From Acidobacteriota bacterium (GTDB taxonomy: Bacteria; Acidobacteriota; UBA6911; RPQK01; JAJDTT01), in the NCBI GenBank assembly GCA_965231825.1, contig OZ246889.1, forward strand, positions 4,697,859-4,761,858: a stretch of DNA of 64,000 nt. The letters run 5' to 3'. Positions within the stretch are counted from its first letter, which is position 1. Each line of letters begins with the position of its first letter. Position numbers and translations under genes: made by a program. Under the pieces are notes generated by a model, which was given only the letters and a program-made list of their open reading frames with translations, was not told the origin of the DNA and ran no database searches. This document shows, piece after piece, positions 6,300-41,714 of this stretch.

Positions 6300-7103
6300 T
6301 TGATCGCGACTGACGCGGAGGCTCTACAAGATTGGTTCTGTGTGCTGAGCCCGCCACTGGACGGCGAGTCCAACATGCGGATCGACCGGCGGCTTCAACT
6401 CTTCGCAGAGCGAAGCCGCCGTCCCGTGACGCTGGTTCGTTTTTACGGTTGGGCGGAGCCGACCGTCTCACTGGGGTGTCATCAAAGTCCTGACCTGGCT
6501 TTCGCCAAGGACTACTGCCAGGCCCACGGCATCCCGTGGGTCCGTCGTCCCACCGGCGGTCGAGCCGTGTTCCACCACGATGAACTCACCTACATGGTGA
6601 CGTCCAACGACGGCAGCCATTTTCCGCTGCAGAGCGTCCGGAGGATCCATCGCGAGATTTCGTCGGCTTTGCAGGCCGGGTTGTCCCGGTTGGGAATCCG
6701 TCCCGTATCGGCGCCAGGAAACAGGCTCCGGGACCGGGCTCTGACACGAGCCCAAAAACCCTGTTTCGTCGCTCCTTCACGGCACGAACTCGTCCAAGGC
6801 ACGAGAAAAATGGTGGGGAGCGCTCAGAAGAAGACGAAGCGCAGCTTCCTGCAGCATGGTTCGATTCCGTTGGTGATTCACTACGATCTCATGGCCGCCG
6901 CTCTGGGAGTCGACCCGGAGTTTCTGAGATCGAAGACCGTCAGTGTATCGGAAGCCGCCGGCCGGCCGGTCTCCTTCCGCGAGTTGTCCCACGCCCTGAT
7001 TCAGGGCTTTCAGCAAGGATTCGGCATCCGCTTCCGGAAGACGATTGACGACTCCCGCGAGTGGTCTCTGGCCATTGCCTCCGGTCAAGCCGTTATGCTA
7101 TAA
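6300..7103 (+). CDS. lipoate-protein ligase/octanoyltransferase family protein (BPL/LPL catalytic domain; LplA/LipM-like)
   Basis: RRPTGGRAVFHHDELTYMV matches the lipoyl/octanoyl transferase R-R-x-x-G-G-x-A-V-x-H-D motif. The start may be the internal M at 6372. Confidence 0.65.
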   Translation: MIATDAEALQDWFCVLSPPLDGESNMRIDRRLQLFAERSRRPVTLVRFYGWAEPTVSLGCHQSPDLAFAKDYCQAHGIPWVRRPTGGRAVFHHDELTYMVTSNDGSHFPLQSVRRIHREISSALQAGLSRLGIRPVSAPGNRLRDRALTRAQKPCFVAPSRHELVQGTRKMVGSAQKKTKRSFLQHGSIPLVIHYDLMAAALGVDPEFLRSKTVSVSEAAGRPVSFRELSHALIQGFQQGFGIRFRKTIDDSREWSLAIASGQAVML

Positions 7104-7138
7104 GAACTCGGCAATTCGCAGCGATTATCTGGTCCGTG

Positions 7139-8203
7139 ATGACGAAGAGTAAGGCCTCGGCGGAACTCACTCAACGCACTTACCAAGTGCTCCACCTGCT
7201 GGTTCTCGAGTACATTCGAACCGGCATGCCCGTCGGCTCCAAGCGGTTGGCGTCACTCCATCAGGAGGGAATCAGTCCCGCGACCATCCGAGCCATCATG
7301 GCCCGGCTGGAACAGGCAGGCTTCCTGAATCAGCCCCACACATCCGCGGGAAGAGTCCCCACCGCCAAGGGCTTTCAGTTTTATATCGATGGATTGGAGA
7401 GGACTCCCGACCTGCCCAACCGGCAAGTGGCCCGGATCCGGCAGATGCTGGAGCAGGAGACGGATCCTGGCGACCTCATGGCCCAGACCTCTCAGATCCT
7501 TTCCCGGCTTTCCAACAATCTGGGGTTCGTCCTGGCGCCGCCTCAATCAGTGTCGGTTCTGAAACGGATCGAGTTCGTGAAGATCTCATCCCGCCGAATC
7601 CTGGCCATACTCGTGACTCGCGCGGGGTTGGTTCAGAGCCGTCTGATTGCGACCAGCCGCCGCCTGAGCCAGGACGATCTGGACCGGGCCGGCCGCTGTC
7701 TCCAGGACCAATTTGAGGGGAGGACCCTTTCCCATATCCGTCGAGAGCTCCGGAGGCTTCAATCCCGGACCGCGCAAGACAGCCGTCCTCGTACCGACGC
7801 CATCCGCCTGGGATCGGCCAGTCTGGTTGGACCGGGGCGAAATCCGGGAAGTGATTCCGAAGTCTATTTCGGCGGAACCTCGAGGCTGCTTCAACAACCG
7901 GAGTTGAACGATCAGGATCGGGCAGCCGGCCTGTTCAGGACCATGGAGAAGAAGAGCCGATTGGCCGAGGTGCTCACCAGGCGCCTCGATGCCGACCAAC
8001 CTGCCCCGCGGGTGACCCTGGACCTGGATCGGCACATCCCGGAGATGCGGGGTTGGGCCATGATTTCCTCACCCTATCTCTACCGTGAACGAGTGGCGGG
8101 CAGCTTGGGGATTCTCGGCCCCAGGCGGATGAAATACGACAAGGGGATCAGTTTGGTTGGATACGTGGCCCGGCTCTTCGGTCAGATCTTGAGCGCGACT
8201 TGA
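7139..8203 (+). CDS. hrcA: heat-inducible transcription repressor HrcA
   Basis: N-terminal winged-helix LTQRTYQVLHLLVLEYIRTGMPVGSKRLA. ~354 aa from the ATG at 7139. Followed by grpE. Confidence 0.85.
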   Translation: MTKSKASAELTQRTYQVLHLLVLEYIRTGMPVGSKRLASLHQEGISPATIRAIMARLEQAGFLNQPHTSAGRVPTAKGFQFYIDGLERTPDLPNRQVARIRQMLEQETDPGDLMAQTSQILSRLSNNLGFVLAPPQSVSVLKRIEFVKISSRRILAILVTRAGLVQSRLIATSRRLSQDDLDRAGRCLQDQFEGRTLSHIRRELRRLQSRTAQDSRPRTDAIRLGSASLVGPGRNPGSDSEVYFGGTSRLLQQPELNDQDRAAGLFRTMEKKSRLAEVLTRRLDADQPAPRVTLDLDRHIPEMRGWAMISSPYLYRERVAGSLGILGPRRMKYDKGISLVGYVARLFGQILSAT

Positions 8204-8336
8204 TCCGCCTGTGAACCGTCCACCTGCGCCCTGAGCGTCAGGGCCGGCTCCGGACCGCCACCAGCTCCCACTTCGAACGTGCAAGCTGATCACGCCAAGC
8301 CGTTGCGATTGGCGCAATTTCCACGACCACGAAGAG

Positions 8337-8942
8337 TTGACGACAATGGAACGACCGGAAGACATCCAGAATCAGACTGAAGACTCTCGGGACGAAGAAG
8401 ACCGGGAAATGCCGCAAGGGGACTCCGCCCCGGCCGAGACCGCCGAGTCGGTCTACGAAGAGGCGCTCGAGGACCTCGCCAAGCAACGCGACAAGTACTA
8501 CGATCTGCTGCTCCGGAAACAGGCCGAGTTCGACAACTTCCGAAAGCGGACGGAGAAGAACCGGTTCGAAGCCCGCCTGCAGGGACAGGCCGATCTGGTG
8601 TTGGACCTGCTCCCAGTACTGGATGCCTGCACCAAGGGATTGGAGGCCATGTCGGCGGCCGATCCGGATCCCGCCCTCACGCCGTATCTGGAGGGCTACC
8701 GCCTGCTCGCCGAACAGATGAAGGCGGTGTTGGAGAAGTTCCAGGTGACGACCGCTCCCGGAGTGGGCAGCCAGTTCGACCCCAGGGTTCACGAGGCGGT
8801 GCTTCGAGAGTTCACCCGGGAACATGACGAGGGTACCGTCATCGAGGAGTATCGGCCCGGTTATCTCATTCGCGACAAGCTCCTGCGGGCGGCCCAGGTC
8901 AAGGTGGCCATGCCGCCGCCGGAGGAGTCTCCGGACCAATAG
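8337..8942 (+). CDS. grpE: nucleotide exchange factor GrpE
   Basis: DKYYDLLLRKQAEFDNFRKRTEK is a GrpE signature. 201 aa. Lies immediately downstream of hrcA. Confidence 0.85.
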   Translation: MTTMERPEDIQNQTEDSRDEEDREMPQGDSAPAETAESVYEEALEDLAKQRDKYYDLLLRKQAEFDNFRKRTEKNRFEARLQGQADLVLDLLPVLDACTKGLEAMSAADPDPALTPYLEGYRLLAEQMKAVLEKFQVTTAPGVGSQFDPRVHEAVLREFTREHDEGTVIEEYRPGYLIRDKLLRAAQVKVAMPPPEESPDQ

Positions 8943-9178
8943 CGTTCCCGGCGGCACACTTCGACTTCAAAGGCAAATCCAGCGAAAAGTTCAAGTGACA
9001 GACTGTCTACGAAACTTGATCGCGACGCATGACCCTCTCTTTCGCACCGTCGAAATCCCGACTGTACAAGACGAGCCGACAAATGCTCCGCCGATCCAAA
9101 CTCGGGTTTGTCCTTCTGGGTTGGTCTCGACGGCAAACGAGTTCCTGACGATTCACAGACTGCGCCAAAGGGGGCAAC

Positions 9179-18100: not shown

Positions 18101-19624
18101 ATGAATCAAGGAGTGATTCCGAAACATCTCCACTTCCGGGACCCGACCCCGCATCTGGACTGGGACCGGCTCCCGGTACGAGTGACCTCCGACGCAACGG
18201 ATTGGCCGCATCATGCCGGGCGTCCGCCGCGTGCGGGAGTGAGTTCGTTCGGCCTGTCGGGAACCAACGCACACGTCGTGGTGGAGGCTTGCGGGATACC
18301 GGACGGCGCCTCCTCCACACTCGATGAAGCGCGAAGGCCCGTGGGATCCGCTCGATCCGTCACCGTATCTCAGCCGGCGTCCGGCCTGTCTCCGTCAACA
18401 GTCGATTTGGCTCCTCGCGCGAAACGGATCCTGCCCCTCTCCGGCAGGTCGGACCAGGCGCTCCGGGACTTGGCGCAGCGGTACCTCTCCTGGCTTGACG
18501 AGCGCGCCGGAGATCTTTCGTCCGAATCTGGTGCGCCGGATTCGGTTTTGTCGGATATGGCCTGGACGGCGGGCGTCGGAAGGAGTCATTTCGAGCATCG
18601 GTCCGGTGTCGTTTTCCAGGATGCAGGTTCTTTGCGAGACCGGTTGAACGCGCTCGCAGCGACCGGCGGCGAGACGGAACCACCCACGGCACCGAAGACG
18701 GCCTTCGCATATGCCGGAACGGGCAGCCAATGGGCCGGAATGGGACGGACGCTGTACGAGAGCGAGCCGATCGTCCGCACCGTGCTGGATCGGTGCGACT
18801 CTGCTCTCAAGGAGGCGAGAGGAGGAGACTCGTTACTGAGCGTTCTGTTCGGCCAACCGGGCGCCGGCGGTGTCCTGGACGATCCCGAATGGGCGCAACC
18901 GGCGATCTACGCGTTGGAATGCGCGCTCACCGCGCTGTGGTCCAGCGTCGGGATCCAACCGAGCGTCGTCGCCGGCCATGGTATCGGCGAGTTGGCCGCG
19001 GCCCAGACCGCTGCGGTCTTCAGCCTTGAAGCGGGCTTGCAGTTGGCGGCGGCGCGGGGGGCGGTGACGGCGGACCTCCTGCGAGTGGGGCCGGCGACGC
19101 CTACGGTGGACGGTTTGGATGCGGCAATACGAAGAATCCAGTTCGCTCCGCCGTCTCTCGTCCTGGTCAGCGGTGTGACCGGCGATATCTTGGATCCGGA
19201 TGACGCGCAAGACGGTGAATACTGGCGCCGCCAGGCACACGAAACGGCGGGTTTCGGCAGAAGCGTCCGGTCGCTGGCGAGCCTCGAAGTTGATTTGGTG
19301 GCGGAGATCGGCCCCGATGCCGTACTGGGTTCGATGCTGCCCCGGTCTTGGCCCGGACAGACCGGTGGCGCCGGGTCGACCTTCGCACCACCGGCCGTGC
19401 TTCAGAGTCTACAGCGCCCGTCCTCGAAGGAGCCGGCAGCGGATTGCGGCGGGGGTTTCGTGAATGCGGTGGCAGGAGCGTACGAAGCGGGTCTCCCGGT
19501 TTCCTTCGCCGGGCTGTTCGCTGGGGAAATCCGGCACCGGATTTCCATACCGGATTACCCGTTCCAGCGACGACGTCACTGGTTCAGAACTCCGGAACCG
19601 GCTTCATCCGGCTCAGGAATTTGA
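9179..19624 (+). CDS. type I polyketide synthase, 3481 aa. Domain order KS1-AT1-DH-cMT-psiKR-ER-KR-ACP-KS2-AT2(degenerate). No TE domain.
   Basis: KS1 ~9266-10544: DTACSSS, EAHGTGT, NLGHLE. AT1 ~10979-11850: GHSLGE, AYHS. DH ~12100-12950: HxxxGxxxxP as DHRVFGRLVVP, and DGCFQ. cMT ~13480-14230: LEVGAGTGSAT. psiKR ~14230-14880. ER ~14900-15850: LIHAGAGGVGLAAIQ. KR ~15895-16440: TGGLGGIG, but NHAAAN replaces NYAAAN. ACP ~16740-16960: LGMDSL. KS2 ~17025-18290: DVGCSSS, EAHGGGS, NIGHLE. AT2 ~18690-19560: GHGIGE, ~70 aa shorter than AT1. A ~10.4-kb continuous ORF. Confidence 0.9.
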   Translation: MMVHDGVFGSSAKPSTERGAENRADMSPGEPIAIVGMACRFPGAENLSAFWRLLEAGRHAVTEGDPGSGKGRVGQLFSDSAVQSVACRYGAYLDGLDQFDAPFFRISPVEAQLLDPQQRLMLETSWQALEDAGIDPDRLKGSRTGVYAGISNNEYRGMILDASETSEPAASLYSVTGTSFNTAIGRVAFVLGLEGPAIALDTACSSSLVAMHQAVSGLERGEADLALAGGVHAILSGRLLEMRANAGMLSPDGRCATFDAAANGYVRGEGCGIVVLKRLSEAEADGDRIWGVIRGASVNQDGASPGLTVPNEASQERVMVDALLRAGVRPVDVDYVEAHGTGTVVGDPIELRSTGAAYGEGRSADCPLLIGSVKTNLGHLEAAAGVAALIKVVLSMRHRRIPRHLHFKDPTPEVDWDRLPLRVPATAMDWPHHSGRPPRAGMSGFGWSGTNAHVVVEGYEATDGAAADSDRSRRPAGSPQLIAVSLPEQTPEPVWAEPEMTRRSTRILPLSGRSEGALRESAERYLNWLDGHALELGSGAAAGDPLLSDMAWTAAVGRSHFSHRAGVLFRDAGSLRGRLREVVESEDGLGTAPAPESVTKMAFVYTGQASQWVGMGAQLYRSEPVVRAVLDRCEDVFQEARGLSLLDAMFGRGETAGDLDDPAWTQPAIYALECALTALWSSAGVRPGVVLGHSLGELAAAQAAGVFSLEDGLRFAAARGVLMGNLPGDGAMGAIFAPASHVAAAVEEMNASSDGPGLSVAADNGAHQAVSGPATDVESILERFEGEEVRVRRLRRSPAYHSPLVDPVLDDLEAALSGVSVAPPSLTFVSTLTGRAVDPATALDGAYWRRQTREPVAFRRAVATLAELGIEAVVEIGPHAVLGPMLTLAWPESADPAQVPPVVSSLRRPGSQVSKEEAEDAFAAAVARAYEAGLPISFPGLFAGESRRRISLPGYPFQHESHWIRAPNRRRPSAGHPLLGARHESASGEISFETELFPSDPAWLNDHRVFGRLVVPGALYGAMAVAASASEDTGLQALEDMQLRNPLILPEEEAEERIGEEGRKLQVLLDPPGDDPSRRVRILSRGGGGGWTLHAEGLFSPGSRRPGSEPSLDLENLRSDLPAQDVAAFYRSKAGLGIDLGPQFRTLEAVWSGAGEALGEVAIRNPENEIRSDLHPLLLDGCFQVMSAAAGTAGNEGGVTYLPFAWERLWLTEQVPDRVVCHARMREAPPDRAAASETTEPPEVLTGDLRIYDPSGVLLGGLEGYTVKRATRAALLSAVEGLNELLYEIVWRDSTLAPGMPAADFLPSPAAVAAPPSGLFSDYLAAQGVGREDRNSLLDDLERLSWAYAIKTLDQLGWERQAGADVDSEDLRRRLRVLGDHKRLFRRLLEMLAKAGILVEAGDGFTVVVGSGDPLPEGMANPEEVAARLADLYPHGSNEIGLFRRSAGALPEVLRGGADPLTLLFSSGEPTAADLYLKAPVARAANRMLGDAVRALVASLPPERRLRVLEVGAGTGSATASVLPELPAGRFDYTYTDISAGFFAEAEGRFGEADGALEYRVLDIEKDPVAQGYESHGYDLLIASNVLHATRYLQETLKHCRDLLAPSGQLLALENLRGQGWLDLTFGQLDGWWRFADSYRPHHALASPAIWRQALGDAGFPEVAVLGVDESETAGQPDRGVIMAQGPAEVDEPAGAWILAADEDNVAAELAAELAARNQRVVLAHRQAPENGDGAEDGAGTVRTAVEMERRESWRSLVNDLPDDVPFAGVVHLAALDGHGPEATSAEMAVDARRATETALALVQGVADSDVVPEKGVWLVTRGGQVLERERHGELAGALLWGFGKVVAREAQHLQPRMIDLDPDAAGFLSPLADELLHPDTETHIAYRGGFRRAARLVRSEEGAERLTLPEGTQWLLEPDPRGALERMHVQPMPVRPLDPRDVRVAVEATGLNFWDVFRSIGFIEEGLLGGEMCGHILEVGSDVSTVAVGDRVVGLAFGTFGPEVVTREEMVAPAPAGMSVTALATLPTVFVSAALSYELAALKAGDRVLIHAGAGGVGLAAIQLAHAAGAEVYTTASAKKRAHLRSLGVKHVFDSRQTAFGQEILDATSGAGVDVVLNSLTGEGFIDASLSCLAQGGRFVELARRGILSEEEMAALRPDVDYFILELDTLKEHDPAWPGASLHGVMEQLASGEVTPLIHSRWPLSEARAAMRFMRAARHLGKIVFTTSPLTRGRLREDRTYLVTGGLGGIGCALAEWLADHGAGAIVLNGRRSPDEAAEKVIRALGNRGATVRVELADVTDAAAVEEMLGRMDQDLPPLGGVIHSVGVLSDQSLGNQSWDRFEQVLWPKVLGAWHLHRTTMHQDLDLFVLFSSVAGVLGNPGQANHAAANAFLDQLAGHRRALGLPGQTIAWGAWSGLGEAEEQRERISRQLAVSGTGWISPQQGLRAFERLVRDDATTAMVAAVDWPVYGEAVEGRPSLLEDLLSHVSETGAESPAWSDDLSSRLREAPPGLHEELLVSFLQQEVQAVLRLPSAPAPTVAFFDLGMDSLMAVELRNRLNRAFSGEYTAPNTIVFDYPDIAGLASHLAGELGGVDAEAATQAQPEPESRPSATIDDDGIAIVGMACRFPGAPNLAAFWRLLQAGADAVTEGRQDSGSWRGVAGDPESSDPGVRRGGFVEEIDRFDSRFFRIAPIEARMMDPRQRMLLETTWHAIEDAGVDPDGLKGSRTGVYVGIGNGDYRDLAMASGETHGYLGTSMSIAAGRIAFALGLTGPAVPLDVGCSSSLVAAHQAAFALRQNEVDMALVGGVNAILSPEVTRFMREAGMLSASGRCRTFDSAADGYVRGEGCGMVVLKRLSDATADGDRIWGVIRGSAVNQNGPSAGLIIPNGPAQERVIEEALTRAGIPPAGVDYLEAHGGGSNLGDPIEVLAAAAVFGRGREAEHPLLMGSVKTNIGHLECAAGIASLIKVVLAMNQGVIPKHLHFRDPTPHLDWDRLPVRVTSDATDWPHHAGRPPRAGVSSFGLSGTNAHVVVEACGIPDGASSTLDEARRPVGSARSVTVSQPASGLSPSTVDLAPRAKRILPLSGRSDQALRDLAQRYLSWLDERAGDLSSESGAPDSVLSDMAWTAGVGRSHFEHRSGVVFQDAGSLRDRLNALAATGGETEPPTAPKTAFAYAGTGSQWAGMGRTLYESEPIVRTVLDRCDSALKEARGGDSLLSVLFGQPGAGGVLDDPEWAQPAIYALECALTALWSSVGIQPSVVAGHGIGELAAAQTAAVFSLEAGLQLAAARGAVTADLLRVGPATPTVDGLDAAIRRIQFAPPSLVLVSGVTGDILDPDDAQDGEYWRRQAHETAGFGRSVRSLASLEVDLVAEIGPDAVLGSMLPRSWPGQTGGAGSTFAPPAVLQSLQRPSSKEPAADCGGGFVNAVAGAYEAGLPVSFAGLFAGEIRHRISIPDYPFQRRRHWFRTPEPASSGSGI
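16337..16339 (+). other. KR active-site position: His codon (cac) where the catalytic Tyr of the NYAAAN motif is expected
   Basis: gcg aat cac gcg gcg gcc aat encodes A-N-H-A-A-A-N. The canonical reductive KR motif is N-Y-A-A-A-N. Tyr to His needs a single T-to-C transition. Confidence 0.6.
18980..18982 (+). other. AT2 nucleophile position: Gly codon (ggt) in GHGIG where GHSxG Ser is expected
   Basis: ggc cat ggt atc ggc gag encodes G-H-G-I-G-E, versus AT1 ggc cac agc ctg gga gag encoding G-H-S-L-G-E. AT2 also lacks ~70 aa corresponding to the small subdomain that carries AYHS in AT1. Confidence 0.6.
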
Positions 19625-19923
19625 CGCGCTCTCCGAGGCGGGGGATCGCTGCAGCGACCAGGGTGGACATGTTCCCAAGCAAAGACGAACCTGTGCACTT
19701 GATTGACGTGAAGAGATGAGCTTGCTACCCTTCTTCCCGTTTCAACCCTCCAAATCTTACGAAAGGATCAGCAACCATGGCTTCGACCGAGGAGCGGATC
19801 AGAGAACTCGTTGATGAGAACCTTGAAGTGGACGGTCGTCCGTTAGGCAAACCACTGGATCTGAACACGAACCTGATCGAGGCCGGAGTTTCCTCCATGG
19901 ATGCCGTTGCGTTCATGCAGGTG
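19439..19923. repeat. tandem direct repeat copy 1 (485 bp), covering the PKS 3' end, the intergenic region and the 5' part of the ACP gene
   Basis: Base-for-base identical to 19924-20408 on manual comparison. The ORF-track peptides 19464..19706 and 19949..20191 are identical, as are 19929..20204 and the tail of 19348..19719. Confidence 0.85.
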
Positions 19924-20109
19924 GCGGATTGCGGCGGGGGTTTCGTGAATGCGGTGGCAGGAGCGTACGAAGCGGGTCTCCCGGTTTCCTTCGCCGGGCT
20001 GTTCGCTGGGGAAATCCGGCACCGGATTTCCATACCGGATTACCCGTTCCAGCGACGACGTCACTGGTTCAGAACTCCGGAACCGGCTTCATCCGGCTCA
20101 GGAATTTGA
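19777..20109 (+). pseudogene. chimeric ORF created by the tandem duplication: ACP N-terminus (49 aa) fused to the post-AT linker tail of the PKS
   Basis: MASTEERIRELV...GVSSMDAVAFMQV followed by ADCGGGFVNAVAGAYEAGLPVSFAGLFAGEIRHRISIPDYPFQRRRHWFRTPEPASSGSGI, which is identical to the PKS C-terminus. Confidence 0.5.
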
Positions 20110-20408
20110 CGCGCTCTCCGAGGCGGGGGATCGCTGCAGCGACCAGGGTGGACATGTTCCCAAGCAAAGACGAACCTGTGCACTTGATTGACGTGAAGAG
20201 ATGAGCTTGCTACCCTTCTTCCCGTTTCAACCCTCCAAATCTTACGAAAGGATCAGCAACCATGGCTTCGACCGAGGAGCGGATCAGAGAACTCGTTGAT
20301 GAGAACCTTGAAGTGGACGGTCGTCCGTTAGGCAAACCACTGGATCTGAACACGAACCTGATCGAGGCCGGAGTTTCCTCCATGGATGCCGTTGCGTTCA
20401 TGCAGGTG
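19924..20408. repeat. tandem direct repeat copy 2 (485 bp)
   Basis: Identical to 19439-19923. The junction at 19923/19924 fuses ACP codons 1-49 in frame to the PKS C-terminal tail. Confidence 0.85.
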
Positions 20409-20507
20409 GTGGCCAAGGAGTTCAACGTCACGATTCCGCCGGAAGAATGCGCGAAGATTCGATCCGTCGGGATGTTGATCGAGTATCTCGATACCCACGC
20501 CGGCTGA
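20262..20507 (+). CDS. discrete acyl carrier protein (81 aa)
   Basis: LIEAGVSSMDAVAFMQVVAKEF is a phosphopantetheine-attachment Ser motif in helix-II context. Size is typical of a stand-alone ACP. A good RBS-like aaaggatcagcaacc sits before the ATG. Confidence 0.8.
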   Translation: MASTEERIRELVDENLEVDGRPLGKPLDLNTNLIEAGVSSMDAVAFMQVVAKEFNVTIPPEECAKIRSVGMLIEYLDTHAG

Positions 20508-20855
20508 ACGTTCCTAAATCCCAAAGTGGTCTGCTGCTGAGGCAACGGCCACTGACGTTGTGTCACTCCGCGGGGACATTGCCGGTAGTTTAGCTTCCCA
20601 CTTCAGCTGGTTCGGTGAAACGGGTCCGACCTTTAATTTCCCTTTCCGTACGAAAGTGTTGGTGCCGTCCATTCAGGAAAACCTTTTGCCTTACGACGGT
20701 CCCCAGTTTCAATAGCCAGAACCGATTCCGGTGGCATACCCGGATCGTGACTTCGACCGCAGGGTCCGAAATCAAGGGCAAATGATGAACCTGATGGCTT
20801 CTCGACGGGGGCCGCATTATCCGTCCGACGGTAACATGACGGAGAAACCAGCGGC

Positions 20856-21755
20856 TTGATGAACACGTGGAAAGTCCCCGAACCGCTTTCAACCCACGAC
20901 GTCCGCGTGGATGATGACACCGTCATCACGCTGAGACGCCACGGAAATCCGGCGGGACCGCGACTCGTTCTGTGCCACGGCAACGGTCTGGCCATCGATC
21001 TTTACTACCCTTTCTGGTCGCTCCTGACCGACGAATTCGATCTGGTCGTCTACGATCTCAGAAACCACGGCTGGAATTCCTCCGGATCTCTTCGAGAGCA
21101 GAACATTCCGACGCTGATTCGTGATCATGACCGTCTTGTCGACGCGATCGATCGACGCTACGGGAAGAAGCCGAAAATAGGCGTATTTCATTCCGTCTCG
21201 GCGCTGATCACGCTGCTGTCACCGACTCTGGGAAGCGGATTCTCGGCCCGCGTCCTGTTTGATCCACCCTTGTGCAAGCCGGATGACGGCTATGCGGAAT
21301 TCGAACGGGCATCGACGCGGGTGGCCGCCATGACCCGGCGCCGTACGGACCGGTTTGAGACCAGGGAGGCGTTGGCCGGTTTTCTTCCCTATTTGCCGGC
21401 CTTCCAACGCGTTGTGCCCGGTGTTTGCGATCTCGTAGCGAGGACGACGCTTCGCGAATCTGAAGATGGCGACGGTTATGTGCTTCGATGTCCACCCGAA
21501 TGCGAAGCGCAACTCGTCGATTACGCGAGAGCATTTGCCGTCCTGGTGGACTTTGAGACGCTTCTCTGCCCGACCAAGGTTATCGGGGCCGATCCGACCC
21601 TGCCCTACTCGTATCTGCCCACGATGAACCTGAGCAATATTCTCACCGTCGACTACGATTTTGTTCCCGAAGCGACACATCTTCTTCAACTCGAACAACC
21701 GGAGGAGTGTGTCGCGGCCATGCGTGAATTCATCGATCCCATCGTCCACACTTGA
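20856..21755 (+). CDS. alpha/beta-fold hydrolase, candidate chain-release or editing thioesterase-like enzyme for the PKS
   Basis: LVLCHGNGLAIDLYYPFW (HG oxyanion region), nucleophile elbow IGVFHSVSAL (Ser retained, flanking Gly replaced), and a downstream Asp/His-containing C-terminal half. 299 aa. Confidence 0.7.
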   Translation: MMNTWKVPEPLSTHDVRVDDDTVITLRRHGNPAGPRLVLCHGNGLAIDLYYPFWSLLTDEFDLVVYDLRNHGWNSSGSLREQNIPTLIRDHDRLVDAIDRRYGKKPKIGVFHSVSALITLLSPTLGSGFSARVLFDPPLCKPDDGYAEFERASTRVAAMTRRRTDRFETREALAGFLPYLPAFQRVVPGVCDLVARTTLRESEDGDGYVLRCPPECEAQLVDYARAFAVLVDFETLLCPTKVIGADPTLPYSYLPTMNLSNILTVDYDFVPEATHLLQLEQPEECVAAMREFIDPIVHT

Positions 21756-21948
21756 TCCGAATGGCCACCCGCGAGCGGGAGCCGGAAAGTCTCAATGCGC
21801 CTTTGGAGCCTGCATACCAAGTATCTTGATGCGCGAGGAACCCGCGTCCTTGAATCGGCCGGGTAACGATCTTATGTTAGGGGCTGACGTCCACCCGTCG
21901 TGAATCGCGACCCTAGCGGGATTCCGACGGAAGAGGGAGAAAGCGGCT

Positions 21949-23067
21949 TTGTCCAAGAGAGACTATTACGAAGTTCTCGGCGTGGATCGTAAGGCCACGC
22001 AGCAGGACCTGAAGGCGGCGTACCGGAAGCTCGCCATCAAGTTCCACCCGGACAAGAATCCGGGAGACAAACAGGCCGAAGAGCGTTTCAAAGAGGCCGC
22101 CGAAGCCTACAGCGTTCTAGTCGACCCTCAAAAGCGCGCCCAATACGATCGTTTTGGCCACGCTGGGGTCAGCGGCGCCGGCGCCGGGGGTGGTGGATTC
22201 AGCGGCGATCCCTTCGCCGATTTCAGCGATGTCCTGGGCGATCTCTTCGGTTTCGGCGATCTCTTCGGAGGCGGACGCTCCGGCCGCGGGACACGGTCCC
22301 GCCGCGGCGCCGACCTGAGGTACGATTTCCGAATCTCGTTCGAAGACGCCGTCTTCGGAGCCACGACCAAGATCAAGATCCCCAGACAGGAAACTTGCGA
22401 TTCCTGCAATGGGTCCGGGGCCGATCCCGGGACCGGCCCCATCACCTGCCCCGCCTGTCAGGGTCAGGGCCAGCAGCGCTACCAGCAGGGCTTCTTTACC
22501 ATCAGCCGCACCTGTTCCCATTGCCAGGGCTCGGGACGGATCGTCAAGAACCGGTGCCGCCGGTGCCAGGGGGCGGGCCGGGTTCAGCGGGAAAAAGTCC
22601 TGGAGATCAAGATTCCGCCCGGCGTCGACCAAGGGTCGAAACTGCGCATCGTCGGCGAAGGAGAGGCCGGCCCCAACAAGGGGCCTTCGGGAGACCTCTA
22701 CGTGGTCCTTTCCGTCGAGGAACACCCCTTCTTCCGCCGTGATCAAAACGACCTTCACTGCGAGCTTCCGGTGAGTTTCGTGCAGGCCGCGCTGGGGACC
22801 GAACTGGTGGTCCCGACACTGGAGGGGACGGAAAAGTTGCGGCTGCCGGAAGGAACTCAGCCCGGTACGGTATTCCGCCTCAGAGGCCGGGGAGTCGTGA
22901 GTCCCCGGGGACACGGCCGGGGAGATCAGTTCGTCAAGGTGAAGGTCACCTTTCCCAAGCGGCTGAGCCGCGAACAACGGGAGTTGCTGCTCCAGCTGGA
23001 AACTCTTGAGGAGTCGAACCCGGACAACGAGGGCTTCTTCGGCAAGGTCAAGGAAGTATTCGGATAA
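21949..23067 (+). CDS. dnaJ: molecular chaperone DnaJ
   Basis: J-domain YYEVLGV...HPDKN, G/F-rich region and four CxxCxGxG zinc-finger repeats. 372 aa. Confidence 0.92.
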
Positions 23068-23149: not shown

Positions 23150-24019
23150 ATGAAGCGGATCGCGATCCTGCCGGCTTTCGTCCTTCTCTCCGGATCCCTG
23201 TTGGCTCAGCAGCGTCCGCTGATCACCGAACCCGCCAGCACCGTTCCCGAAGGAATGACCCGCTTCGGTTTCGGTTTCGAGTACCTCCAAGACGCCACTT
23301 TCCGGCTCTCCGGACTGAAGGGAAACCTCACCCGCGCCGGCATCTGCGATCTGCGCTTTGGCGTCGGACCCAGAGCCGAGCTCCAGATGGGCTGGACCAT
23401 GCAGGATTTTCTCCACATATCCGAGAGGTTCCCGGCTCCCCACACGGAAAGACTCGCGTTCTCGGGCAATTCGACCAGCGACTACGGAGACCTCTTTGTC
23501 GGCTCCAAGGTCCGTTTCCTGGATGAGAAGAACGGTCGGCCGGCAATGGGCCTGCACTTCCTGGCCCAGATTCCCATCGCTTCGAACGAAACCGGCATCG
23601 GAAATGACGTCACGAACATCTTCTCTGCCCTCGTATTGGAGCGGCACTTCGGCCGTCTGAAGAGCTTCATCAATATGGGTCTGGCCCTCCTGGGAGATCC
23701 CTTGGATGCGGCCGCGCAGGATGACCTGGTTTTGTACGGGATCGGGATGGCCTACCCGGTCACTTCCAAGATAAACCTGGTCGGCGATTTCTACGGAAGG
23801 GCCGGTTCCGGCCGTCACACGGGAATCCCGGTGTCACCCGACATCATTGCCAGTCGATCAGGCATCGGGACCGAGCAACAGAAGAGGCTGCGAGTGGCCC
23901 TGCAGATTCGGGTTGGAGGGCTCTATTTGGATGTGGGGGCCTTTGCCGGGTTGCGAGACACGGACCCCTCGTCCGGCGTGGTCTTCGGACTGTCGAAAGA
24001 TTTCAAGTCCCCGTTCTAG
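23150..24019 (+). CDS. hypothetical secreted/outer-membrane protein (signal peptide MKRIAILPAFVLLSGSLLAQ)
   Basis: Start chosen at the internal ATG 23150, which precedes a signal peptide. The C-terminus ends in F (barrel-like). No family recognised. Confidence 0.5.
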   Translation: MKRIAILPAFVLLSGSLLAQQRPLITEPASTVPEGMTRFGFGFEYLQDATFRLSGLKGNLTRAGICDLRFGVGPRAELQMGWTMQDFLHISERFPAPHTERLAFSGNSTSDYGDLFVGSKVRFLDEKNGRPAMGLHFLAQIPIASNETGIGNDVTNIFSALVLERHFGRLKSFINMGLALLGDPLDAAAQDDLVLYGIGMAYPVTSKINLVGDFYGRAGSGRHTGIPVSPDIIASRSGIGTEQQKRLRVALQIRVGGLYLDVGAFAGLRDTDPSSGVVFGLSKDFKSPF

Positions 24020-24178
24020 GAGTCTGCGCCGTAGGAATGATCGTAGCGAGGAAGTGGGGAATCGAGGCCAGATTGACTCGATTTTGAGGTGCATAGTCGT
24101 TCTATTCGCCGAGAAATCGAGGAAATATGGACCGATTCACCGCTTTCGCAGTAGATCAATTTCTGTGGCGCAGGCTCC
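24019..24178. mobile_element. MITE-like 160-bp element, copy A, with ~20-bp terminal inverted repeats
   Basis: ggagtctgcgccgtaggaat...atttctgtggcgcaggctcc. ~95% identical to 40814-40973. Lies between the convergent OMP gene and nrdJ. Confidence 0.7.
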
Positions 24179-24208
24179 TGGCCCGCAAATCTCACCGCGT
24201 CGCCGAAC

Positions 24209-40786: not shown

Positions 40787-40813
40787 CGGCCCGTTTCGGA
40801 TCTGCGGAGGCTA

Positions 40814-40973
40814 GGAGCCTGCGCCGCAGAAATGATCGTAGCGAGAAAGTGGGGAATCGAGGCCAGATTTTCTCGATTTTGAGGTGCATAGTCGTTCTAT
40901 TCGCCGAGAAATCGAGGAAATATGGACCGATTCACCGCTTTCGCAGTAGATTGATTTCTGCGGCGCAGGCTCC
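40814..40973. mobile_element. MITE-like 160-bp element, copy B, with perfect 20-bp TIRs and TA flanks
   Basis: ggagcctgcgccgcagaaat...atttctgcggcgcaggctcc, with TA on both sides (40812-13 and 40974-75). Intergenic between the GT4 and GT2 genes. Confidence 0.75.
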
Positions 40974-41714
40974 TAGCTCCCACAGCTTGAGATATTTGAA
41001 GAATGTGGACACGGCAGAGAGGGCCGAAACGGCCAGCCCGGGAACGCCGTCCTGAAAACCCCGGTGAAGGACGTAATTGCGCAGGAATACCAGCGGGGGA
41101 TAAATCAACAGTTTCACCGGTCCGGCTCGGGCGCCCGAATCGAAATAGTCGGCCGCCGCCAGGTTGGTGAACCGCTCCAACTGCTGCAGATACTCACTCA
41201 GGGAAGCGTAAGTGTAATGGTGCAGATCCCCCGGGAGACGGCCGGTGGACCCGTTGACTCGGAAGGACTCGTGGACTCGCCCCCCCTCCCACCGTCCCGC
41301 GGACCGGAGAAAGAGCCTCATCTGCCAATCGGGATACCAGGTCGTGTGCTCGATCCATCTCCCCAGAAAGAAGGTCTTGCGGCACAGGTAGTATCCGTCG
41401 ATTCCTTCATCCTTCCCCGATTTCCAGCGGCGCACCTCCGCCTGCAGCTCCGGACTCAGAACTTCGTCCGCGTCCAGGCTCAGGACCCAGTCGAAGGAGG
41501 CTTGATCCGTCGCAAACTGCTTCTGGTCGCGGTAGCCGGACCACCTGCGTTGGAGAAATCGATCCGTATAACGACGGCAGATGGCTTCGGTCCCGTCTGA
41601 GCTGAAGGAGTCCACGACCACGATCTCGTCGCTCACGGCGTGGAGGCTGCTCAGGGCAGCATCGATCTTTTCCTCCTCGTTGTAGCAGATGACGACGCCG
41701 GAGAGCTTTCTCAA
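40932..41714 (-). CDS. glycosyltransferase family 2
   Basis: GVVICYNEEEKI...VVVDSFSSDGT GT-A DxD context. The 3' end overlaps MITE copy B by ~40 bp, so the C-terminus and stop may be MITE-derived. Confidence 0.75.
   Translation of the reverse strand: MRKLSGVVICYNEEEKIDAALSSLHAVSDEIVVVDSFSSDGTEAICRRYTDRFLQRRWSGYRDQKQFATDQASFDWVLSLDADEVLSPELQAEVRRWKSGKDEGIDGYYLCRKTFFLGRWIEHTTWYPDWQMRLFLRSAGRWEGGRVHESFRVNGSTGRLPGDLHHYTYASLSEYLQQLERFTNLAAADYFDSGARAGPVKLLIYPPLVFLRNYVLHRGFQDGVPGLAVSALSAVSTFFKYLKLWELGACAAEINLLRKR

Follow-up and report, generated by a model that had tools for sequence, protein, structure and literature searches.

Organization of the PKS-ACP locus

The 64-kb window, by which we mean the whole stretch of DNA analysed, contains a gene for a large type I polyketide synthase (PKS), followed by genes for a discrete acyl carrier protein (ACP) and an alpha/beta-hydrolase (Table 1). 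Pfam assigns the domain order KS-AT-DH-cMT-ER-KR-ACP-KS-AT-like to the PKS, and its orthologue in L001, a closed Acidobacteriota MAG chromosome sharing ~93% nucleotide identity with the window, has the same length and the same C-terminus. The ACP is 95% identical to its L001 counterpart and differs by one amino acid from the ACP of four contigs (L030-L033) that share 97-98% nucleotide identity with the window. In related loci the hydrolase gene accompanies the PKS and ACP genes as a conserved partner, with a tblastn match in 12 of the 14 we compared.

Table 1. Coordinates of genes and repeat features in the duplicated region
Feature	Position	Strand	Description
Type I PKS gene, 3481 aa	9179..19624	+	Translation and Pfam; intact; final 61 codons and stop lie inside repeat copy 1
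Repeat copy 1	19439..19923	+	PKS codons 3421-3481 and stop (19439-19624), 152-bp intergenic region (19625-19776), ACP codons 1-49 (19777-19923)
Chimeric ORF, 110 aa	19777..20109	+	In-frame fusion of ACP residues 1-49 with the C-terminal 61 residues of the PKS; no internal stop
Novel junction	19918..19929	+	CAGGTG and GCGGAT side by side (break at 19923/19924); ACP codon 49 joined to PKS codon 3421
Repeat copy 2	19924..20408	+	Orphan PKS-tail coding segment (19924-20109), second intergenic copy (20110-20261), first 49 codons of the intact ACP (20262-20408); same sequence as copy 1 (100% identity)
Discrete ACP, 81 aa	20262..20507	+	Intact; PF00550 (PP-binding) at 1.8e-10
Alpha/beta-hydrolase gene, 298-299 aa	20856..21755	+	Pfam Abhydrolase_6; outside the duplication

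A perfect tandem repeat joins the ACP to the PKS tail

The boundary between the PKS and ACP genes is present twice. The original prediction had placed an exact 485-bp tandem duplication here, spanning the PKS stop, the intergenic region and the first 49 ACP codons. Direct string comparison finds 0 mismatches between the two 485-bp copies at the predicted position, and TRF agrees, reporting an array at 19439-20409 with a period of 485, 2.0 copies, 100% matches, 0 indels and a score of 1942. Translation confirms the span: the unit begins in frame with the PKS at codon 3421 and closes after 49 whole ACP codons. The PKS and the second ACP copy, which had been described as intact, are so by length, and the ACP retains its PP-binding match. 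The duplication disrupts the function of neither gene and leaves one intact copy of each. This outcome is uninformative: whenever a tandem duplication breaks two neighbouring genes once each, an intact copy of both is restored.

The copies lie exactly head to tail with no spacer, and a single novel junction (19923|19924) separates them, with neither filler nor deletion. The period-485 match run is 486 nt long, the G at 20409 being equal to the first base of the unit, and the junction microhomology of the repeat amounts to this 1 nt (G). The 8-mers flanking the junction agree at 5 of 8 positions, which is chance level. A junction homology of 1 nt is likewise at chance level and is compatible both with illegitimate recombination and with an artefact. 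That 485 bases should be identical by chance is not credible. According to TRF, the repeat is the sole tandem array within the 64-kb window; no third copy of the unit is found there, each 30-mer sampled from the unit occurring exactly twice. The unit yields no Rfam match at gathering score and no tRNA, and a search of 19300-20900 revealed no sigma-70-like promoter and no intrinsic terminator.

The junction also creates an open reading frame. The original prediction of an in-frame chimera containing the GVSSMD motif holds, but the PKS tail, put at 63 amino acids, is 61 residues long (62 codons with the stop). The ACP part comprises helix I, the loop, the GVSSMD serine motif and the start of helix II; the PKS part is the C-terminal post-AT linker with its YPFQRRRHW motif, and the junction peptide contains AFMQVADCGGGF. 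In a search of 5.8 billion protein clusters the chimera was found once, as P0001, a cluster with 1 member encoded on one 5,167,274-bp contig, which we infer to be the window's own genome. No homologue with the architecture of the chimera was detected, all other matches covering the ACP half or the PKS-tail half only. P0010 (163 amino acids, 80% query coverage) was considered as a second chimera and rejected, since it proved to be a normal fragment of a PKS C-terminus and lacks the ACP half.

If the duplication is real, the chimera could in principle be a functional new gene, expressed as a 110-residue protein that couples the serine-bearing half of an ACP to a KS-binding (KS-docking) post-AT linker. 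In a lipid or polyketide pathway of a symbiont, such a protein might serve as a decoy or regulator, modulating the PKS or competing for phosphopantetheinyl transferase. The fusion is in frame, inherits the upstream region of the real ACP gene together with its AAAGGA ribosome-binding site, and keeps the GVSSMD motif. However, an in-frame fusion is expected in 1 of 3 cases by chance, and the absence of homologues of the same architecture speaks against function. Only 49 of the 81 ACP residues are left, the chimera has no Pfam match, the PP-binding match being lost, and it lacks the complete four-helix PP-binding domain by which a functional ACP is recognized. Zero divergence between the copies, moreover, leaves no time for selection. 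We therefore regard a functional chimera as very improbable, although it would, if true, amount to the birth of a new gene caught in the act.

Homologous loci carry a single copy

The original prediction had proposed to look among relatives for a single-copy arrangement, and this is what the related genomes contain, the closed chromosome included. None of the 14 related loci contains a direct repeat with a length of 60 nt or more and an identity of 90% or more; all of them have a single PKS tail, and those in which an ACP was detected have a single ACP. L001 and all four of the closer contigs (L030-L033) are single copy, and the 19923|19924 junction is not present in any related locus. By sequence comparison, the single copy is thus the ancestral state and the duplication is derived.

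Over the unit, ~14 of 486 positions (~2.9%) distinguish the window from its nearest relatives, whereas none distinguishes the two copies. Had the duplication occurred as early as the split from these relatives, the probability of observing 0 differences would be ~8e-7, and the 95% upper bound on divergence between the copies is ~0.6%. The event is therefore either far younger than that split or never took place in a cell. The window is 98-99% identical to L030-L032 before 19438, 96-98% inside the unit and 98% across 20409-20507, with no step at either boundary. With flat divergence from the relatives over both breakpoints and identical copies, we reject a change of strain or a concatenation of haplotypes there.

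Exact-protein look-ups with the ACP, the chimera (as the window's own, P0001 and P0002), the hydrolase and DnaJ returned no independent assembly of the strain. A 32-mer that the window shares with L001, located immediately to the left of the junction, was scanned against JGI metagenomes and gave 0 matches.

Origin of the duplication

A very recent duplication or an assembly artefact had been offered as the two explanations of the repeat, and this either/or fits our findings, with single-copy relatives, no differences between the copies and a chimera confined to one assembly. The duplication is an assembler error or a very young and harmless duplication, and in either case ordinary.

To a false duplication by the assembler we would give about an even chance, slightly favouring it over a cellular origin. 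On this view the assembler would have made a single join between ACP codon 49 and PKS codon 3421, where almost no homology exists. It may have duplicated the segment falsely, left an overlap between reads or contigs untrimmed or measured it wrongly, or promoted a variant that only one or a few reads contained. The true locus would then be 485 bp shorter and consist of PKS, 152-bp spacer and ACP, as in every relative, and the 110-residue ORF would be spurious. A metagenome-assembled genome at chromosome scale (one contig of 5.17 Mb) seems to be the source, probably built with a long-read platform and assembler. In favour of an assembly-level origin, the copies are identical (0/485), the repeat is confined to one assembly and missing from all 14 related loci, an overlap error at an arbitrary place would leave just such a 1-nt microhomology, and a MAG submitted as a complete chromosome is the nearest relative at species level. 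Long-read metagenome assemblers are reported to produce direct-repeat duplications that have no read support, as well as variants found in single reads (bioRxiv 10.1101/2025.04.22.649783).

Several observations count against an assembler error. No second tandem repeat occurs in the 64 kb and nothing points to a systematically bad assembly, so that we rejected a systematic problem in the window. Identity to the relatives of ~98% on both sides of the breakpoints excludes the haplotype-concatenation subtype of artefact. If the reads were HiFi, many-kb reads would span the whole 970 bp, a situation that assemblers usually get right. A junction homology of 0-1 nt is, finally, nothing unusual for RecA-independent duplications either.

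A real, very young tandem duplication of the chromosome is, in our estimate, somewhat short of an even chance. It would have arisen by RecA-independent joining, or by sister-strand template switching, at sites sharing 1 nt, and would be neutral and not yet lost by recombination. Neutrality would follow from the restoration of a complete PKS gene and of a complete ACP gene that has its own ribosome-binding site, and the duplication may be polymorphic in the population. The exact head-to-tail geometry with its clean single junction is consistent with such an event, as are the ancestral single copy in the relatives, the colinear flanks with uniform divergence over both breakpoints, a window free of any other anomaly, and the preservation of every essential function. 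Against it stand its occurrence in one assembly only and the existence of documented, similar-looking false duplications from long-read metagenome assemblers. The lack of divergence, too, demands a very recent event (at most ~0.6% between the copies compared with ~2.9% to the nearest relatives). A perfect 485-bp direct repeat is recombinationally unstable and readily lost by homologous recombination; real perfect repeats thus do not persist for long, and a fixed one is a priori less likely to be met.

The repeat resembles known cases of both kinds. Well-studied RecA-independent duplications usually measure kilobases to hundreds of kilobases and are recovered under gene-dosage selection. Like these short-junction bacterial duplications, the window's repeat is a two-copy head-to-tail array with one novel junction of zero to few nt homology and a single-copy ancestor, in which each gene cut by a breakpoint is rebuilt once and a fusion ORF forms at the join; unlike them, it is 485 bp long, brings no dosage gain of any complete gene and is known from assembled sequence. 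With the false duplications described by Trigodet et al. (bioRxiv 10.1101/2025.04.22.649783) it shares a long perfect direct repeat in an otherwise normal metagenome-derived contig, a spurious ORF and restriction to one assembly, but those cases are defined by read clipping or missing read support, whereas ours is defined by the assembled sequence.

The importance of the repeat is mainly practical, and neither outcome raises an issue that specialists would regard as unsettled. If it is an artefact, the public record holds a spurious 485 bp and a spurious 110-residue hypothetical protein, the latter already in protein databases as a singleton cluster, and a correction is due. If it is real, it is a neutral, short-lived structural variant, which illustrates how tandem duplication creates fusion ORFs and adds nothing new on PKS biology.

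Relation to Sup-type PKS clusters

The products proposed for Sup-type (sponge symbiont ubiquitous) PKS clusters are mid-chain methyl-branched fatty acids (PMC4245539, PMC3908369). As in these clusters, the window's locus combines a single complete reducing module that includes a C-methyltransferase (KS-AT-DH-MT-ER-KR-ACP) with a discrete ACP and a hydrolase; its PKS carries an additional C-terminal KS and AT-like didomain beyond the reducing module. By its domain order and gene company, the locus may belong to the Sup type. The 485-bp duplication is not a feature of this family. The homologous loci come from MAG bins of the RHO1_bin_ and SB06xx_bin_ series and from MAGs deposited as chromosomes; many of the homologues, across several phyla, are from bins with names that suggest sponge metagenomes.

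A tandem repeat at the PKS–ACP junction

The two copies of the repeat unit are identical over 485 nt each by direct string comparison, and Tandem Repeats Finder reports an array at 19439–20409 (period 485, 2.0 copies, 100% matches, 0 indels, score 1942), in line with the position and identity given for this duplication in the original prediction. No other tandem array is present in the 64-kb window, and a third copy is ruled out, since all 30-mers sampled from the unit were found there exactly two times. Matching at period 485 extends over 486 nt because the unit begins with G and the next base after copy 2 (20409) is also G, which gives the junction 1 nt of microhomology. This is chance level, and the octamers at the two parental breakpoints (GGCAGCGG and GGTGGTGG) are alike at 5/8 positions. 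The microhomology is compatible with RecA-independent illegitimate joining and equally with an arbitrary overlap error.

The unit starts in frame at PKS codon 3421 and contains the last 61 PKS codons and the stop, a 152-bp intergenic region with the ribosome-binding site AAAGGA, and 49 codons of the discrete ACP. Because the unit holds the PKS 3' end as far as its stop, the PKS reading frame is complete, and so is the second ACP copy; both had been expected to be intact. The chimeric ORF at the repeat join was likewise located correctly, in frame and with its GVSSMD motif, but its PKS tail measures 61 aa and not 63 aa, a small miscount. We found no Pfam match in the 110-aa chimera. The tail contains a YPFQRRRHW motif, which recurs after the first AT domain of the same PKS and aligns weakly with the linker after KS/AT units in solved PKS structures.

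Features of the PKS–ACP locus and a two-copy intergenic element (window positions)
Feature	Position	Description
hrcA	7061–8203	Flanks the PKS–ACP locus, PKS side
Type I PKS	9179–19624	3481 aa; Pfam order KS-AT-DH-methyltransferase-ER-KR-ACP-KS-AT-like
Repeat unit, copy 1	19439–19923	485 nt
Chimeric ORF	19777–20109	110 aa; ACP residues 1–49 incl. GVSSMD, 61-aa PKS tail
Repeat unit, copy 2	19924–20408	485 nt
Discrete ACP	20262–20507	Complete, 81 aa; PP-binding match 1.8e-10
Alpha/beta hydrolase	20856–21755	Flanks the PKS–ACP locus, ACP side
dnaJ	21949–23067	Next after the hydrolase
Candidate palindromic element, first copy	24016–24192	Intergenic
Candidate palindromic element, second copy	40811–40987	Intergenic

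Whenever the two breakpoints of a tandem duplication fall in neighboring genes, one in each, a single intact copy of both genes remains and the join carries a fusion of the 5' part of the downstream gene with the 3' part of the upstream gene. Because any such duplication rebuilds the intact copies, intact flanking genes are no evidence of selection or authenticity. An in-frame fusion has a chance expectation of one in three.

Related loci carry a single copy

When the 350 C-terminal PKS residues were searched against GTDB, with each species represented by one genome, 29 loci were recovered; the best (L001) is from an Acidobacteriota MAG that was submitted as a 5.5-Mb chromosome (OY764083.1, 93% amino-acid identity). 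Window segments 18500–19927 and 19917–20678 map to one L001 stretch with an overlap of ∼497 bp (blastn and alignment), and L001 is therefore single copy, with the order PKS stop, 153-bp spacer, and 81-aa ACP. The ACP cluster in the protein collection includes a variant with one amino-acid difference (P0121), found on four ENA metagenome contigs (L030–L033). At the 3' end of the PKS these contigs share 97–98% identity with the window, and 4/4 are single copy. The original prediction had pointed to related strains as a comparison, and none of 14 related loci shows a direct self-repeat (≥60 nt, ≥90% identity); all have a single PKS tail, and the ACP, detected in 11 of the 14, is single in 11/11. 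Short-read contigs are weak evidence here, since short-read assemblers collapse perfect tandem repeats, and the closed chromosome L001 is the stronger case.

The chimera has exactly one full-length match (P0001, 100% identity) among 5.8 billion protein clusters. P0001 is a singleton from a single contig of 5,167,274 bp (NCBI and ENA), and the exact ACP (P0002) is recorded solely on that contig, which we infer to be the window's own genome. Each remaining match is confined to one half of the chimera, ACP or PKS tail; P0010, an apparent second chimera at 80% query coverage, proved to be a plain PKS C-terminal fragment. The contig size suggests that the source is a chromosome-scale MAG, as for L001, and so probably from long reads. 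No second assembly of this strain, which might have broken at the repeat boundaries or run through the locus in single copy, turned up in our searches. P0003, a close ACP homolog of 123 aa that comes from another assembly, of a related organism (ENA contig, 38,932 bp), follows the ACP to about residue 54 and then continues in another frame (…VVSKEFDTSRFLRKS…), which suggests a frameshift from an indel error or a pseudogene.

Age and origin of the repeat

When the window with its second copy removed was aligned with L030–L032, ∼14/486 unit positions differed (PKS tail, 4–5; spacer, 6; 5' part of the ACP, 4), compared with 0 between copies 1 and 2. Were the duplication as old as the split from L030–L032, the probability of 0 differences would be ∼exp(-14) = 8e-7; the 95% upper bound on inter-copy divergence is ∼0.6%. 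The event is thus very recent, or the copies are being homogenized, or the repeat was never in a cell. Identity to relatives is flat over both breakpoints (∼98–99% to the left, 96–98% in the unit, and 98% in 20409–20507). With no step in divergence at either breakpoint, we rejected the reading that haplotypes of two strains were concatenated here.

Together with the single-copy relatives, the identity of the copies supports, with minor corrections, the earlier either/or reading of a very recent duplication or an assembly artefact. Perfect 485-bp direct repeats are readily lost through homologous recombination, so that fixed real repeats are short-lived; we rate a genuine young duplication at a little under even, and a functional chimera, which is a subset of that case, as highly improbable. 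We give even odds to an origin at the assembly level, a category that takes in the promotion of a variant rare among the reads. Long-read metagenome assemblers have yielded direct-repeat duplications present in the assembly alone, with zero read support, and contigs with a variant backed by a single read, and spurious ORFs result from such errors (bioRxiv 10.1101/2025.04.22.649783). The repeat resembles a spontaneous short-junction tandem duplication and also an assembler false duplication, both ordinary categories that reads alone can tell apart. It is itself ordinary, found in one assembly, with no new mechanism and no functional consequence, and its practical value is that of a curation flag on the source record.

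Neighboring genes and other sequence features

In this genome the PKS, ACP, and hydrolase form a block with a heat-shock gene on either side, hrcA and dnaJ (window 7061–23067), and dnaJ lies downstream of the block in L001 too. In more distant homologs (L002–L009; MAGs labeled Gemmatimonadota, Longimicrobiales, and Gammaproteobacteria) the hydrolase, and likewise the ACP where detected, is found downstream and on the opposite strand. The neighboring genes appear reminiscent of Sup-type sponge-symbiont PKS clusters (PMC4245539, PMC3908369) in their single complete reducing module with C-methyltransferase and in the discrete ACP and hydrolase that partner the PKS, and many homologous loci come from bins with names suggestive of sponge metagenomes. 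This likeness is irrelevant to the duplication.

In the AT-like domain at the PKS C terminus, GHGIGE stands where the catalytic GHSxG serine would be expected (window 18974–18991, aa 3266–3271); the first AT reads GHSLGE. The serine is absent in 9/9 homologous loci that reach the site (L001–L009; GHG[IV]GE, GEGVGE, and GSGPGA), and as these MAGs carry differing phylum labels, the domain appears to be a conserved AT fold that is catalytically inactive, which may perhaps serve the discrete ACP for docking or as a scaffold.

The intergenic region between ACP and hydrolase (20508–20855) shares ∼85% identity with L030–L033, compared with 97–99% in its flanks, and contains indels; L001 has ∼224 additional bases at the counterpart (7619–7843). 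An intergenic element of ∼170 nt occurs twice in the window in the same orientation (92% identical), both copies being bounded by terminal inverted repeats of ∼20 nt (GGAGYCTGCGCCGYAGRAAT; 4 matches versus 0 expected). It has no Rfam match and resembles palindromic elements of the MITE or REP kind; the first copy, the only one folded (24014–24190), forms one long hairpin (-93.6 kcal/mol, z = -9.2).
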